Shown here: one piece after another, positions 28,242-34,506 of the stretch
How the letters are laid out: every line of letters begins with the position of its first letter
Position numbering within the stretch: the first letter of the stretch is position 1
The notes under the pieces: model-generated
What the model was told of the DNA's origin: nothing
The model's input: the letters and a program-made list of their open reading frames with translations, nothing else
Databases searched by the model: none
Position numbers and translations under genes: made by a program
Source of the DNA: Shigella phage JK32
Reading direction: 5' to 3' (one strand)
Sequence record: MK962753.1
Length of the DNA stretch: 64,000 bases

Positions 28242-28796
28242 CTAAAAATTTTTAACACCATATTCACCAAAATAAAGATCAACCGCTTTGTCATAAGCTC
28301 TGGCCGCATCTTCTTCGTTGACATAATACCCAAGAGATATTAGTTTATCATTATTTCGTATTCTTGCAACCCATTTCTTCGTATGTTTATGCCAGCTAAC
28401 CCCTTTATACTTGCTTGCTTTATTCTTGTACTTTCCAACGTTACAAGCATTTTTCTTTGCGTCGGACTCTCTAAGATTGCGTGGTGCGTTGTTTAAAGGA
28501 TTTCGGTCTATATGATCTATAATTTCTGGTTGTGTTCCATGCTCAAGAAACCATACAATACGATGTACATATGGCTTTAAAACCCTCCCATTATCCATAA
28601 CAATTGCAATTTGGAGATGATCCTGACTTTTAAAAGTTTTTACTTTATCTCCTGCCTTATAAAACTTTCCTTCGTAATTCTTTCCTCCGGCTCGGCTATT
28701 CTTTAAATGATAAAGAATACCATCGTCGTCATGTCTATATCTTTCTCGTATAATTCGTTGCGTTTCTTCATCCCACAATTTGGAACGTCTACTCAT
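28242..28796 (-). CDS. free-standing HNH endonuclease with AP2-type DNA-binding domain
   Basis: HRIVWFLEHG...IDHIDRNPLNN HNH core plus YKGVSWHKHTKKWVARI AP2-like segment. Confidence 0.65.
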   Translation of the reverse strand: MSRRSKLWDEETQRIIRERYRHDDDGILYHLKNSRAGGKNYEGKFYKAGDKVKTFKSQDHLQIAIVMDNGRVLKPYVHRIVWFLEHGTQPEIIDHIDRNPLNNAPRNLRESDAKKNACNVGKYKNKASKYKGVSWHKHTKKWVARIRNNDKLISLGYYVNEEDAARAYDKAVDLYFGEYGVKNF

Positions 28797-29175: not shown

Positions 29176-29409
29176 TTATTTTCCTTCTGGGATATAGTCG
29201 ATGATTAAAGAAAATTCATCTTCTGATACATTATAGCTATGTGAGATTGTACCCGTAAAGACCTCAAGATCCGGTGACTTGATATTACACGGATCGATAA
29301 TCACCGGAACGCCGCAATCTCTCAAAAATAATTTGGCGAAATACGGCACAAGGTCAGTTTCAAACTCTGCTTCTTCCAGCAAACGGGAAATGTTAATTTT
29401 CAATCTCAT
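29176..29409 (-). CDS. hypothetical protein
   Basis: 77-aa ORF. Confidence 0.35.
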
Positions 29410-29926
29410 AAAATTGGTCCAGGCTAGGCAATTCCTCGGTCAATACATCTTCAACCTTTGGCGCTTTCGGTTTATTGACCGATTCCTCGTAGTTGTTGAT
29501 TTTATCGTAAATGTCCTGTATGAATGCCTCATCCGCAATCTGGCACATATCAGCGTCGCGTTCGTCATATACATGATGCACAAAATATTTGTATTTTGCG
29601 GCTGTCGCTGTTCTTTCTTTTTTAATGCGTTGCACAAAAGCATTAAAGCACGCTTGCGTAATGTAAGCATGAGGATTTTTATACTTTGTCTCGTCAAAAT
29701 TAATCAAACCCTTGACCGCCGCTTCGATTCCATCGTCGATCATTTCTTCGCGCCATGTTTGACTATAGCCAGAAAAGTTAAAACGCCGTGATAGATTTTT
29801 AGAGATTTGCATAATTGCTAGGCCGATTTGGTTGCTCATAGGCACTTGTCGACCTTCGGCTGCAATTCGTTGTTTCCAACGACAAATTTCTTCGTAAAGC
29901 TCTTTATTGTTTACATAATCAGACAC
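29393..29926 (-). CDS. 55: late transcription sigma factor gp55
   Basis: 177-aa ORF with strong similarity to T4 gp55 ([36 protein letters not shown]). Confidence 0.85.
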
Positions 29927-29966
29927 TTCGCACCCTCGCTATTATTTAGGAAATAACCCTTTCGGG

Positions 29967-31436
29967 CTATTCCCCATTACCATTATACTTTCTTTGCTTA
30001 GTTATCCACACTCTAACCATCTCTACAGATTCGCCGTCAGACGGATCAAGAGTTTTTCCTTTTTTCTTCATGCGGTACTTAAATCCGTTAAATCTTGCAT
30101 TCTCTTGCTCGTTAAAGTCGAACATCTTTTTAAATGATTTTCGCCCTTTACGCTCACCGCATTCTAGAGGAATCATTCGGTCTGTTATTACATTGGCATT
30201 AGGTAGAAACGTTTTTAGATAATCTACCAACGCCCAATCAGGAACATATAGATTAACATTCTCCTTGCTCTCGTTGTCTCTCAGGTTACAACGCAAACAT
30301 AATTGAAATGCTGGTTCCAGATAATCAGACACATGACGCGCTTTCAAAAACTCGTTTGTCGGGAGATCGCAACTATTAGCAAGACCTTTTAAAATATCAA
30401 TCTCCCATCGTTGAGGGTTAAAGCTGAACATCACAGCAACGTTTTTATGATGAATGTAAGAGTTAAGACCATAAGACCCGTAAGGTATCCGCTCACCAAT
30501 ACCATTTGTGCACGCTTCTCGGTCCCGATTCACGGTATAAATGAAGTCATCACCGCATTCATTTTTAACCATATCAACAAGACGTTCAAAGGTATTGTTT
30601 GTTTCTGACTGGTGACGCGACCATCGTTCAGAGTCCGTCATAAGGATGATGTTAACTCTATCTGTATTTTTATACTCTTTGAAATATAGCCTTGATTCTA
30701 GCGCACTAGGAACAAAATCGCAATTTGCATAGTATCGTAGATACTTCCCACTATATGTATCAAAGAGATTTGCACATGCTATCGTAACCTTTTTAAAGTC
30801 TCCCCACGTACCGTGTTTGTTATCGTTCAAGAAAACAATTTTCGACCCGTTCTTCCGGTGTCCTTCGTTATGTTTTACCATAACGTTGATTTTCTTCTCT
30901 AATAACGCCTCATAAAGCCCTCTAAGAGAAGAATCGATCATATCAGTACCATCCTTTGCACTTTCTATCTTTTCTTTGATAGCGGCCTTCTCAGAGTCTT
31001 TTAGAACTAAGTTCTGTAGGCATTCCGATTCGTCGGCGATTGGTTCGCAATGCTTCGTGATAAGTTCAAGATTAGACTTAAACGGATACTCATTAAATTC
31101 AACCAGTTGAGGAACTTCATCAATGTAAAGAGCATATTCACTAAACATTTTTGAACGCTCCATATTAGATAACGCTGTATGTGTGATGAATATCACATCA
31201 GCACCATCTTTAACTGATTGCATTATCGACGCTTGCACTGTCTTAAGGCTTCTTAGTCTGGTGCTATCAATCAAGACAGCACGACCGCCCATTCTTTTAA
31301 ACTTATTGTAAGATTGTTCACTTAAAACACGAGATGGCGAAGCAATAACCGCTTTTTCTTTTGTCTCTAGGACGTGGGAAAGTATAGCATCAGTTTTCCC
31401 CGCCGCTGGCAATGCGATTAATGTTTCAATCTTCAT
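29967..31436 (-). CDS. P-loop NTPase of unknown function
   Basis: 489-aa ORF; N-terminal LPAAGKTD Walker A and candidate Walker B YIDEVPQ; rest unassigned. Confidence 0.4.
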   Translation of the reverse strand: MKIETLIALPAAGKTDAILSHVLETKEKAVIASPSRVLSEQSYNKFKRMGGRAVLIDSTRLRSLKTVQASIMQSVKDGADVIFITHTALSNMERSKMFSEYALYIDEVPQLVEFNEYPFKSNLELITKHCEPIADESECLQNLVLKDSEKAAIKEKIESAKDGTDMIDSSLRGLYEALLEKKINVMVKHNEGHRKNGSKIVFLNDNKHGTWGDFKKVTIACANLFDTYSGKYLRYYANCDFVPSALESRLYFKEYKNTDRVNIILMTDSERWSRHQSETNNTFERLVDMVKNECGDDFIYTVNRDREACTNGIGERIPYGSYGLNSYIHHKNVAVMFSFNPQRWEIDILKGLANSCDLPTNEFLKARHVSDYLEPAFQLCLRCNLRDNESKENVNLYVPDWALVDYLKTFLPNANVITDRMIPLECGERKGRKSFKKMFDFNEQENARFNGFKYRMKKKGKTLDPSDGESVEMVRVWITKQRKYNGNGE

Positions 31437-31741
31437 TAGAAACCCTTACGTCGTGCTTTCTGGCATTTCTTGATCATTTTATCAGAAATTTCGCGCTTCG
31501 GTGCAATCTCTTTCACACCGAAAGCACTAATGCCAAATTCAGAGAGAATATATTCAACCAACAATTCACGCACACGCGCTTTACCGATATTCACGCCGTT
31601 ATTTTTCAGATATGTCTGGCCTTCGACTTGCATCAGATCTAAATCCGCGTCGGTAATATTGATTTCTTCCATGCGCCCAAATCGAGAATAAACCATGTGT
31701 GCGATTGCATTGTGTACTAACATAATATATTCCTCACTCAA
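31436..31741 (-). CDS. hypothetical protein
   Basis: 101-aa ORF. Confidence 0.35.
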   Translation of the reverse strand: MSEEYIMLVHNAIAHMVYSRFGRMEEINITDADLDLMQVEGQTYLKNNGVNIGKARVRELLVEYILSEFGISAFGVKEIAPKREISDKMIKKCQKARRKGF

Positions 31742-31892
31742 GAATTACTTAATGATACTTACTTTACCAGATCCGTGACAATGAGCGCAACACCCATCAC
31801 CGCGCAATCCTGTTCCGTTACAGTGTTTACACGTCTTCAACGGTAAAGCCATTATAGCAAATAAAGCAATAATGAACACCGAAACTAAATTC

Positions 31893-32162
31893 TCAATAAT
31901 CATAAATAGCCCTCAGTTCTTTATAGCCTCCAATGTGCTCGTTGTCAATGAATATCTGGGGGTATACAAATCGGAGGCTCTTTGAGTTCAGCCTCCCCGC
32001 CAGTTCTTCAATCATATCACGGTCGGGAATAATGTCAACCCCGACCTGCTTGAATACTGGTTTAAGTGTATACGGAATACCCAGATCATCCAGTAGCTTC
32101 ATTGCACCAATACAACCATAACAATGATAAGCCTCTTTCGGTATACCGTATATCTCGATCAT
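31893..32162 (-). CDS. glutaredoxin-like protein (NrdH position)
   Basis: 89-aa ORF with CYGC redox motif. Confidence 0.5.
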   Translation of the reverse strand: MIEIYGIPKEAYHCYGCIGAMKLLDDLGIPYTLKPVFKQVGVDIIPDRDMIEELAGRLNSKSLRFVYPQIFIDNEHIGGYKELRAIYDY

Positions 32163-32659
32163 TTCTCAGCCTTTAATCTTTCTAGTTCTTCTTCCAGTTC
32201 CTTGATCCGTTGGTCACGTTCAAAGTCACGCTGTAACTTAGTGGCGAATACTCGTTTAAACTGATTGTAATCATCGATTTTAAACACTTCTTCTTCGCCA
32301 TAGCGACGTACAGAAACTTCGTAGTTGTTGAAGAATTGTTGCATCATTGCTTCGGATGACAGTTCTGCTGATACTACTTTAAAATATTGATCTTCTGTAG
32401 GCGAAAACCAATTACAAGCATAAAGATAAACCTTTTCATTGTCTGGACACTGGTAAGCCTTACCATCGATTTCAATCACAGAAACATATTCAGGTATACT
32501 AGATGAATCAATAGCTAAGACTTTAAACGCACGGTCCCCGATAAACTCGGAGATCACACGATTCGCATCACTGGTTGCAAATGCTTTACGCGCTTGTTCG
32601 TTTTTCCACTTATAGGTCATACCAACAACAAACATATTACCAACCTCGCTCTTTACCAA
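32159..32659 (-). CDS. paralogous family protein (TYxWK domain plus charged helical tail)
   Basis: MTYKWKNEQARKAF N-terminal motif and RIKELEEELERLKAEK tail. Confidence 0.45.
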   Translation of the reverse strand: MVKSEVGNMFVVGMTYKWKNEQARKAFATSDANRVISEFIGDRAFKVLAIDSSSIPEYVSVIEIDGKAYQCPDNEKVYLYACNWFSPTEDQYFKVVSAELSSEAMMQQFFNNYEVSVRRYGEEEVFKIDDYNQFKRVFATKLQRDFERDQRIKELEEELERLKAEK

Positions 32660-33470
32660 TCAAAAATTCAACTTCACGACGTTTAATGTCTTCTTGAAGG
32701 TCTTTAATCTTCTGGCGATCTTGCATGATTTCATCCATCTTGTCAAGTGCCGCAATGAAATCATCGAAACGTTCAAAGGTTTTACCTTCATTTGCTTCGC
32801 CAAATTTAACCATTGTCAGGCCGTAACGACTACTAAACAGACGTTTCAACTGTCCAACGACCTTAGAATCATCGTTCACCTTTTCTTCTGGTTCTTTCGC
32901 TGTTTCAACTTCACGAAAATATTTTCGTTCAAGCCCAACAAACCACACAGCATCAACATCATCATCAACACCCGCCGAATGAGGATTAAATGTTCCACAA
33001 ACATTATCATTATTGACGTCGATCATAGTAACGAAACCAACAGAATCAACGGAAGATACCGTAAAAGTCTCATCTCCTATCCAATCAGCAATTTTACGGT
33101 TGATATTAGAACAGTGAGAAAACGTCACTTTTGCGTTTACATCCTTCCAAATATAAGTTTTACCAACTTCCCATTTAGGAGGAACTTCTTCAACTTCACG
33201 AAAGAATTTTATATCAAATGGACTAAACAAATATGTTGACGTCCAAATGTCTTTTCCTGTAGCCGTTTTCGCCGTATGATAAACACCGTCTAGCTCTATT
33301 GCATCAATCCAACCATTACCCTCGATCTCGATGATGGTAAATGGCTTGTCACCAATAGCTGCACTGATATCGCTGTTAAGTGGAGAAAGATCACCTGCTA
33401 CGTTAGTAATAAACTCAGTTTTAGCGTTTTCATCTTTCCAAGTGTAAGTTTTACCAATTTCCCATTTCAT
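32637..33470 (-). CDS. paralogous family protein, two tandem domain copies
   Basis: KWEIGKTYTWKDENAKTEF and KWEVGKTYIWKDVNAKVTF within one ORF. Confidence 0.45.
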   Translation of the reverse strand: MKWEIGKTYTWKDENAKTEFITNVAGDLSPLNSDISAAIGDKPFTIIEIEGNGWIDAIELDGVYHTAKTATGKDIWTSTYLFSPFDIKFFREVEEVPPKWEVGKTYIWKDVNAKVTFSHCSNINRKIADWIGDETFTVSSVDSVGFVTMIDVNNDNVCGTFNPHSAGVDDDVDAVWFVGLERKYFREVETAKEPEEKVNDDSKVVGQLKRLFSSRYGLTMVKFGEANEGKTFERFDDFIAALDKMDEIMQDRQKIKDLQEDIKRREVEFLIGKERGW

Positions 33471-33482
33471 AATATATTCCCC

Positions 33483-33962
33483 TTAACCGATTTTATCAAG
33501 TTCGTTTAATGCTTTCTCTGCTTCCTGTATAGCTTGCACTCTTTCCGGCATTTTGTCAAGAAAATCTTTCAACTCTTCAAAACTGGAGATATGACGCAAG
33601 GCGTTAGCACCGATAGCCGCATGTGATTTGCATTCAAAGCGAATTTTATAATTATCCATCGCCAACTTGAGAAGGTCCATCAGTTTAGATTCTTCTGGAA
33701 TAATAATTTCTTCAAATCTGCTACGGTCATGATCCAGAAACCAACAAGATAGACCTACATCGGTTGAACTCATATAAGTTCCATCATGAAGATAAACAGA
33801 CCGCACGTATCCTTTTTTCGCATCAACCGACGCAACTTTAAACGGTAATCTCAGATATTTCAAATAATCAACATCATACCATTTAAAAAATTGGTTTGCA
33901 TCTTTTACATCTTTCCACGCATAGGTCTTACCAGCTTCCCATTTCATAATATCATCTCTCAT
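33483..33962 (-). CDS. paralogous family protein
   Basis: KWEAGKTYAWKDVKDANQF; tail LKDFLDKMPERVQAI. Confidence 0.45.
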   Translation of the reverse strand: MRDDIMKWEAGKTYAWKDVKDANQFFKWYDVDYLKYLRLPFKVASVDAKKGYVRSVYLHDGTYMSSTDVGLSCWFLDHDRSRFEEIIIPEESKLMDLLKLAMDNYKIRFECKSHAAIGANALRHISSFEELKDFLDKMPERVQAIQEAEKALNELDKIG

Positions 33963-34506
33963 TTTTGATACGTGATTCTAATTGGATCATACGGTCGCGC
34001 GTTTGTTTGTATTCTCGGATAGCACCGATCCGGCTAGGCATACCATCCAGTACGCTCTTAATATCTTCTAGGGTAGTAATTTTGGCAATGCTATTATGTA
34101 ACCCCATCTTATCGATCAACTGAATGTCGTAGGCTTCCATAAGCAGACCCAGACGTTCTAATGTTAAATCCGGTTCTTGTTCTTTATCTTCTTCCTTTTC
34201 TTCCGGTTCTGGGATTTCTTTGTCAATAGTAGCTTCGGTAAAGAAACGACGCTCACCAGCCCAAAACCACACACCGGAAAAGCCAATAGGGGATTCTTTT
34301 AACGTCATAGAGTCGTAACCACTGCCGATAATAGTAATTTCTCTAACATCACCATCATCGTCAATGTCTTCTACCCTAAACGGGCGACCAGCCAACAAGT
34401 CCACAATACGTCTGTTAATAGACGACGAAAATTTAGTCAGTTCGGCTTTCGACGCTTCGCATTCAATCTTGTAAGTTTTACCAACTTCCCATTCCATAAT
34501 AATCAC
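33952..34506 (-). CDS. paralogous family protein
   Basis: EWEVGKTYKIE...; tail LEDIKSVLDGMPSRI. Confidence 0.45.
   Translation of the reverse strand: MIIMEWEVGKTYKIECEASKAELTKFSSSINRRIVDLLAGRPFRVEDIDDDGDVREITIIGSGYDSMTLKESPIGFSGVWFWAGERRFFTEATIDKEIPEPEEKEEDKEQEPDLTLERLGLLMEAYDIQLIDKMGLHNSIAKITTLEDIKSVLDGMPSRIGAIREYKQTRDRMIQLESRIKNER

Follow-up and report, generated by a model that had tools for sequence, protein, structure and literature searches.

A conserved hypothetical gene beside gene 55 of Shigella phage JK32 encodes a candidate accessory superfamily 2 helicase with XPD/DinG-like topology

In the 64,000-nucleotide stretch of Shigella phage JK32 that we analysed (sequence record MK962753.1; hereafter the window), an open reading frame (ORF) encoding 489 amino acids occupies positions 29967-31436 on the minus strand, between gene 55 and a gene for an NrdH-like glutaredoxin. 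We propose that its product is an uncharacterised member of the superfamily 2 (SF2) helicases with XPD/DinG-like topology and, with about even confidence on the strength of its conserved residues and predicted fold, that it acts as an ATP-driven motor, an accessory DNA helicase or translocase for replication and recombination intermediates of the phage. An initial annotation, made from the letters and ORF translations of the window, had left the protein as an unassigned P-loop NTPase, for which a helicase or translocase, a nucleotide-dependent modification enzyme or an anti-restriction enzyme were considered. The P-loop NTPase label and the first of these options are supported by the present analysis, as the protein has SF2 core residues, a two-RecA fold and DNA helicases as its best structural matches. 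No domain or neighbouring gene points to nucleotide-dependent modification, and a DNA-modification enzyme was rejected because no such domain is present.

The ORF is a real, conserved gene. It runs from an ATG start to a TAG stop, with a Shine-Dalgarno-like AAGGG about 8 nucleotides 5' of the start, and its product is 100% identical to the copy in vB_EcoM_Skers and 99.6% identical to ORF044 of Phi1; the window itself is from a Krischvirus, a T4-like phage of the RB49/Phi1/JSE type. The protein falls into phrog_2467 (E 2.6e-174), for which PHROGs gives the function as unknown, and it has no match in NCBIfam. A tblastn search located the gene in 243 of 50,697 phage records, full-length in 237 of the 243, and in all 243 the product is labelled 'hypothetical'. 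The carriers are nearly all T4-type myoviruses, together with a few Pseudoalteromonas phages; they include Krischvirus, Aeromonas phages (such as 31, 25 and 65), Pseudotevenvirus (RB16 and Miller) and Erwinia phage Cronus, as well as phages of Cronobacter, Enterobacter, Citrobacter, Proteus, Serratia and Yersinia. No copy was found in T4, either in the tblastn search of phage records or on inspection of the T4 locus, and none in the E. coli genomes searched. Our literature search found no functional study of the phage helicase or of its family.

Three alignments were used to assess conservation, namely one of 42 homologues with 32-74% identity (A1), one of 73 distant family members (A4), and an additional alignment (A3). 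The complete SF2 helicase motif set is seen in A1 and A4, with core residues of motifs I and II invariant and the arginine fingers of motif VI located in the second RecA-like domain, as expected of an SF2 core. Both nucleotide-binding motifs that had been pointed out in the initial annotation hold up: in the Walker A sequence LPAAGKTD, residues G13, K14 and T15 are invariant among the 42 homologues, and in the Walker B sequence YIDEVPQ, D106 and E107 are invariant among the 42 close and the 73 distant homologues, as is K14 among the latter. Family-wide, including relatives of about 800 residues, K14, D106, E107, G323, N325, Q378, R382 and R386 are all invariant, and the family consensus reads ASxSRxLSxQS for the motif Ia-like element, TIAxAN for the motif III-like element and FQLCxRxxxR for motif VI. 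The domains and motifs lie in the window as follows:

31107-31436, minus strand: first segment of RecA-like domain 1 (residues 1-110), with motifs I and Ia, VIFITHxAL and motif II; delimited by Pfam DEAD, the alignment and the AlphaFold2 (AF2) model
31389-31409, minus strand: motif I/Walker A, PAAGKTD (residues 10-16); P10, G13, K14 and T15 invariant in A1
31311-31343, minus strand: motif Ia-like ASPSRVLSEQS (residues 32-42); S33, L38 and S42 invariant, and A32, S35, R36 and Q41 conserved in at least 90%
31170-31196, minus strand: VIFITHTAL strand and TH..L motif (residues 81-89); V81, F83, T85 and L89 invariant in A1
31110-31121, minus strand: motif II/Walker B, DEVP (residues 106-109); D106, E107 and P109 invariant in A1
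30792-31106, minus strand: alpha/beta insert between motifs II and III (residues 111-215), seen in the AF2 model and by hhalign
30768-30788, minus strand: motif III-like VTIACAN (residues 217-223), on the strand returning to RecA1; T218 and N223 conserved in at least 90%
30177-30671, minus strand: RecA-like domain 2 (residues 256-420)
30462-30473, minus strand: motif V-like YGLN (residues 322-325; HGLN in the family); G323 and N325 invariant in A1, A3 and A4
30279-30305, minus strand: motif VI, QLCLRCNLR (residues 378-386), with the arginine fingers; Q378, R382 and R386 invariant in A1, A3 and A4
29970-30176, minus strand: basic helical C-terminal tail (residues 421-489), with 17 K/R versus 10 D/E; E445 and W477 invariant

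Among these elements, VTIACAN, which lies on the predicted strand at residues 216-221, would correspond to motif III, and VIFITHTAL is one that we take to resemble the 'vvv(T)NHalL' element of DinG and XPD. The protein has 10 Cys in its C-terminal region, and none in the approximately 63 residues between motifs Ia and II. Cys conservation within the T4-like clade is limited to C130 and C380, neither of which is invariant family-wide, and an Fe-S (iron-sulphur) or Zn protein was ruled out on this lack of conservation.

The AF2 model, built from A1 (pLDDT 87.7, pTM 0.77), divides the protein into RecA1 (residues 1-110 and about 216-255), the insert (111-215), RecA2 (about 256-420) and a basic tail of two to three helices. 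The long C-terminal region, for which the initial annotation recognised no fold, is a second RecA-like helicase domain followed by the short basic helical tail. The insert comprises about 105 residues, with elements from E112-119 to H209-213, and is modelled as a block at pLDDT 78-93. A Foldseek search with the predicted structure, which had been suggested as a check at the outset, matched hundreds of SF2 structures, and the first 14 places were taken by CasDinG, DinG or XPD (E 7e-11 to 9e-8). Alignments to DinG and XPD extend over 315-368 residues versus about 250 for other SF2 structures. The defence-associated helicases CasDinG, Hna and DdmD are all among the matches, and the herpes origin-binding protein appears as a weak one (E 1.6e-6). 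XPD carries two insertions, its Fe-S domain lying between motifs Ia and II and its Arch domain between motifs II and III; the 489-residue protein has an insertion at the Arch position and none at the Fe-S position. Taken together, its modelled architecture comes closest to that of XPD/DinG helicases (SF2B) without Fe-S, to which we infer that it is related.

Several observations weigh against this interpretation. The likeness to XPD and DinG is that of a predicted model, at 9-16% identity, and the insert is likened to the Arch domain by its position rather than by superposition. The protein does not have the four-Cys Fe-S domain by which XPD and classical DinG are defined. At the sequence level, Pfam DEAD alone exceeds its cut-off (28.6 bits versus 26), covering residues 11-130 of a generic RecA1, and neither the protein nor any of the 42 homologues matches Pfam DEAD_2, Helicase_C or Helicase_C_2, leaving the DinG/XPD Pfam families unrepresented. 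The A1 profile found no match among PDB sequences, and the A4 profile found PriA, DDX52 and Mfd over RecA1 only, with no DinG or XPD. Since the sequence profiles stop short of DinG and XPD, our claim is that the protein would be built and would work like an Fe-S-less SF2B helicase, and not that it is a DinG. Concerning its role, T4 does without the gene, so that a T4-type life cycle in itself does not require it; the upstream neighbours vary between genera, so that no specific partner can be named from context; and sigma-70-like promoter sites, at 21 in the region versus 14.7 expected, are not significantly enriched.

As an accessory motor of this type, the protein would bind and hydrolyse ATP at the cleft between RecA1 and RecA2, with K14, D106/E107 and R382/R386 as the catalytic residues, and hydrolysis would drive translocation along single-stranded DNA held under the inserted domain. 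Moving on phage replication and recombination intermediates, it may separate the strands of a duplex or an RNA:DNA hybrid, or remove bound proteins. That the substrate is DNA, and that the role lies in phage DNA metabolism, we infer from the evidence as a whole; 5'-3' polarity would be expected by analogy with XPD and DinG. Phi1 annotates dda, 61, 41, uvsX and 43 separately, indicating that the 489-residue protein is an additional helicase, and uvsW is a T4-core gene. The phage would therefore possess it on top of the helicases of the T4 replisome.

The family to which the protein belongs extends far beyond T4-type phages. An exhaustive profile search retrieved approximately 1,330 cluster representatives (clustered at 50% identity) at E<=1e-3. 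Among 235 collected members, 130 consist of the helicase alone (about 470-560 residues), whereas 98 share a C-terminal module of about 310 residues; the others have an N-terminal extension (1), an N-terminal extension with the C-terminal module (1), or a different C-terminal extension (5). Homology of the phage protein to the long form of about 800 residues spans residues 1-419 and takes in the insert (hhalign probability 100%, E 2.4e-46); between the phage basic tail and the PriCT-like part of the long form, hhalign found no significant similarity (probability 1.2%). The first part of the C-terminal module is an alpha/beta domain with the motifs LDxDGG, NSxS..RYRVxIP, GxDxSK and FYLPC, and the second is a four-helix end in which weak matches to Pfam PriCT_1 (5 of 27 sequences, best E 1.4e-4) and RepB_primase_C (2 of 27) were obtained; in another set, of 50 members, one matched PriCT_2. 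Pfam searches with two long-form C-terminal sequences found no match, and neither did comparison of the module with PDB sequences, whether as a single sequence or as a profile. Because PriCT domains accompany primases, the module may be primase-like.

A different fusion is seen in P0130, a metagenomic protein of 877 residues with the helicase at residues 371-812. Its N-terminal part (residues 1-365) carries the motifs FDFDEDED, GSGHVYV and CYAPFREDKNPS, which by eye look like those of an archaeo-eukaryotic primase (AEP) plus a zinc knuckle. This putative assignment found no Pfam and no PDB sequence match, and an hhalign comparison between the long-form C-terminal module and the N-terminal part of P0130 was not significant.

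In two loci, L007 (8168-12445) and L008 (6023-10300), a long form directly follows a tyrosine integrase gene and an HTH_17 gene, and downstream lie genes encoding Metallophos, PLD-like, phosphatase/ADP-ribosylglycohydrolase and Mrr_cat proteins; the layout is island-like, and the downstream genes are possibly defence cargo. Other long forms are found near integrases (L011 and L012) or near a resolvase and a transposase (L010), and they occur in chromosomes of Bradyrhizobium and Mesorhizobium, under the name 'DEAD/DEAH box helicase family protein', in metagenomic contigs and in the Agrobacterium jumbo phage Atu_ph07. The genes are arranged as in the replication module of an integrative element. 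The position beside integrases, resolvase and transposase, combined with a PriCT-type module, points to DNA-replication chemistry. In Mesorhizobium sp. Root552 (L005 7998-10385) the long form is split into a 462-residue helicase and a 289-residue C-terminal module, followed by a gene for a 490-residue protein with a region resembling domain 3 of the type I restriction R subunit. One helicase-only relative, P0053, is encoded between a resolvase gene, a TIR-domain gene and an integrase gene; scans of viral contigs with single non-T4 helicase-only relatives produced no match, and a further search for homologues yielded four proteins only.

In a neighbour-joining tree of the helicase cores, built without bootstrap, the T4-like clade is monophyletic and lies among the helicase-only forms, apart from the fused branch. 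On this grouping we rejected the possibility that the phage gene arose by recent truncation of a long-form replicase.

The family has probably been noticed before. Kazlauskas et al. (2018; PMC5862659) noted a remote similarity to SF2 helicases in the C-terminal domains of some All3500-family AEP primases. They predicted in one sentence that pVOG1685/pVOG9714 are 'novel helicases of viruses and plasmids', for which T4-like phages and SPbeta have homologues, and cited UL9 as the family closest to pVOG9714. In our analysis, YonV of SPbeta (NC_001884 67250-68482; L018 17250-18482; 410 residues, 'hypothetical') matches the family hidden Markov model over positions 6-431, at 45.7 bits with a bias of 18 and with HMMER filters off only, and its GSGKT, DE, Q..R..R and VP align with the family motifs; we regard YonV as a remote full-length member, as judged from this alignment. 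The presence of members in T4-like phages, the YonV match and the N-terminal extension of P0130 together suggest that the phage helicase probably belongs to the pVOG1685/pVOG9714 family.

Turning to the locus in JK32, the initial placement of the gene between gp55 and the NrdH-like gene was right, and two further genes that had gone unmentioned, one for a gp55.2 homologue and a 52-residue CxxC ORF, also lie in this interval. Gene 55 is downstream at 29393-29926, with a GTG start and a 40-nucleotide gap after the helicase stop, and the NrdH-like glutaredoxin gene is upstream at 31893-32162. Three further features of the locus are:

31436-31741, minus strand: homologue of gp55.2 (DUF7570), Pfam 1.4e-28; 42% identity to T4 gp55.2, E 9e-20
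31752-31781, minus strand: sigma-70-like match TTGTCA-18-TATCAT (10/12), just upstream of the 55.2 homologue; by consensus only
32011-32038, minus strand: sigma-70-like match TTGACA-16-TATGAT (11/12, with TG), inside nrdH and directed towards the helicase; by consensus only

The ATG of the helicase gene overlaps the TAA stop of the gp55.2 homologue (TAATG), which suggests that the two are co-transcribed and translationally coupled. The late-promoter motif TATAAATA was not found within 10 kb of the helicase gene. Judging from these sites, the gene is probably expressed early, on one transcript with that of the gp55.2 homologue. A hairpin, CCCGAAAGGG, with a GAAA loop lies at 29957-29966 (minus strand), directly after the helicase stop codon.

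The gene order in T4 is 55.2-55.1-55, with 55.1 encoding 87 residues, and in JK32 it is 55.2-helicase-55. The gp55.2 neighbour is likewise present in Phi1, Miller, RB16 and Aeromonas phage 65, and not in Aeromonas phage 31 or Cronus. Since T4 keeps 55.2 beside 55 without the helicase, the adjacency of 55.2 and the helicase is probably inherited synteny. In Krischvirus, Biquartavirus and Roskildevirus, with Aeromonas phage 31 and Erwinia phage Cronus among the examples, the gene transcribed next after the helicase is gene 55. A rearrangement in Citrobacter phage Miller has placed gene 34 rather than 55 behind the helicase. Between Krischvirus and Aeromonas phage 31, the helicase is 37% identical, compared with 51% for gp55 and 48% for gp47, and a divergence so near that of gp55 and gp47 agrees with a long history of vertical descent in which the helicase drifted somewhat faster. 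The surrounding genes, 43, 44, 62, 45, 46, 47, nrdH, nrdG and nrdD, serve replication, recombination and nucleotide metabolism.

Other features of the region are recorded here in their own right. The 52-residue ORF (31745-31903, minus strand), the start of which overlaps the end of nrdH, has an N-terminal hydrophobic stretch and the sequence CKHCNGTG...CCAHCHGSG, a DnaJ-like CxxCxGxG zinc-ribbon pattern. The slot between genes 47 and 55, described initially as holding an HNH-AP2 endonuclease and two small ORFs, does contain an HNH_3 and AP2 ORF, an a-gt.4-like DUF2654 gene and an a-gt.5-like DUF5491 gene. The first of these, of the homing-endonuclease type (28242-28796, minus strand), lies between gene 47 and the a-gt.4 homologue and looks like a recent mobile insertion, because Phi1 lacks a gene at this place although it is otherwise about 99% identical in this part. 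From nrdH to nrdG (32159-34506, minus strand) there are tandem paralogous ORFs with no Pfam match, in which each module starts with MKWE.GKTY.WKD and one ORF consists of two modules; a 69-nucleotide DNA segment recurs among them at 33116, 33407, 33884 and 34434. In Aeromonas phage 31, the gene overlapping the helicase start (L002 4441-5004) is annotated as 'DprA-like recombination mediator' and has no Pfam match, and an annotated repeat element, 31repeatA_2 (L002 6571-6641), lies between the helicase gene and gene 55.

Alternative to a general accessory motor, the protein might be an initiator, that is, a UL9-like helicase that opens an origin and corresponds to the helicase half of a mobile-element helicase-primase, with its basic tail recognising an origin or R-loop. 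It would open a site for the phage primosome, possibly together with the topoisomerase I inhibitor gp55.2 favouring R-loops. We consider this unlikely, although it draws on several of the observations above: the relatives fused to PriCT-containing modules and located by integrases, in two loci with an HTH_17 gene between; the N-terminal motifs of P0130, AEP-like by eye; the reported similarity of pVOG9714 to UL9 (PMC5862659) and the weak Foldseek match to the herpes origin-binding protein; and the coupling of the helicase start to the gp55.2 homologue, given that T4 gp55.2 inhibits E. coli topoisomerase I (PMC4396842). However, a primase-like module is missing from the phage protein, no relationship between its tail and that module was detected, and the T4-like clade groups with the helicase-only forms instead of the fused ones. 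Neither iterons nor repeats were found near the helicase gene, and there is no Herpes_ori_bp match. Neither Pfam nor PDB sequences nor hhalign confirmed the fused domains as AEP, and the adjacency to 55.2, which T4 has beside 55 without the helicase, is probably inherited. A narrower form, in which a structure-specific helicase from the mobile-element replicase family is made together with gp55.2 and opens or resolves R-loops at origins, is quite improbable in our estimate; if true, it would represent a route of replication initiation or control that T4 lacks.

A role in conflict, either with host defence or with a satellite or competing element, is somewhat more doubtful than an initiator; the helicase might, for instance, dislodge surveillance complexes or disturb related island replicases. 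In its favour, the gene content upstream varies between genera and T4 lacks the gene; the closest folds include CasDinG, Hna and DdmD, and relatives reside on islands with TIR, Mrr_cat and PLD-like genes. On the other hand, no PADLOC helicase family matches the phage protein, and its relatives have weak N-terminal matches only; the locus is stable and syntenic in several genera, with vertical-like divergence; and the relatives on islands occupy the replicase position beside the integrase, outside the cargo genes. The anti-restriction role envisaged in the initial annotation likewise has no signal, PADLOC giving a marginal and unrelated match only, and the gene is present both in Cronus, which has an alpha-glucosyltransferase gene, and in Phi1, which has none in the stretch read. 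An anti-correlation with hydroxymethylcytosine (hmC) glucosylation was rejected for the same reason, since Cronus carries both genes.

That the protein is an RNA helicase, or a transcription-linked motor acting on mRNA or RNA polymerase, seems improbable to us. Pfam DEAD is the sole family above its cut-off, and the gene adjoins the late sigma gene 55 in most genera examined. However, motif II reads DEVP, the DEAD match covers a generic RecA1 only and Helicase_C is missing, the best full-length folds are those of DNA helicases, and the fusions and contexts of the family involve DNA-replication modules; moreover, in Miller the helicase is followed by gene 34 instead of 55. Finally, that the gene is a mere passenger, decaying or selfish and of no use to the phage, as the absence from T4 and its closest relatives and the ubiquitous label 'hypothetical' might suggest, is very improbable given a full-length ORF in 237 of the 243 records that match, from many genera, catalytic residues that are all invariant, and a fixed position with no attached recombinase or homing endonuclease.

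T4-type phages are a reference system for the enzymology of replication and recombination, yet a conserved extra helicase is still 'hypothetical' in at least 243 phage genomes, nearly all of them T4-type. The assignment as a DinG/XPD-like SF2 helicase improves the annotation of a family of about 1,330 representatives and ties it to the replication modules of integrative elements. It overturns nothing, as an accessory helicase is to be expected in a 165-kb phage and the family was probably flagged computationally in 2018.

Among known systems, the closest are the XPD, Rad3 and DinG helicases (SF2B), especially CasDinG of type IV CRISPR and Gram-positive DinG. The phage protein differs from these in having no four-Cys Fe-S domain, in its length (489 residues versus 550-740) and by an identity of 9-16%. 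Some accepted XPD/DinG members, CasDinG for one, likewise lack the Fe-S cluster. DEAD-box RNA helicases differ from it in motif II, which is DEVP rather than DEAD in the phage protein, and in Helicase_C, for which the protein has no match. Among defence systems, PADLOC returned for the phage protein a marginal and unrelated RTasSLATT match only (E 0.0087), and for its relatives weak N-terminal matches to Csf4, Cas3 and PbeA. Herpesvirus UL9 is also a viral SF2 helicase and a weak Foldseek match, whereas the UL9-type C-terminal origin-binding domain is missing from the phage protein; Pfam Herpes_ori_bp (PF02399) was not detected at E<=1 in the phage protein or at E<=0.1 in the 42 members. In contrast to the arrangement described for pVOG1685/9714, the fusions seen here are mostly reversed, with the helicase N-terminal and the PriCT-containing module C-terminal. 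The long forms of integrative elements and of Atu_ph07 have the same core and the same invariant residues as the phage protein, and differ by their approximately 310 extra residues and their separate branch in the tree. Within its own setting, the protein resembles Dda, gp41 and UvsW of T4, which are likewise phage-encoded, ATP-driven helicases among replication genes.

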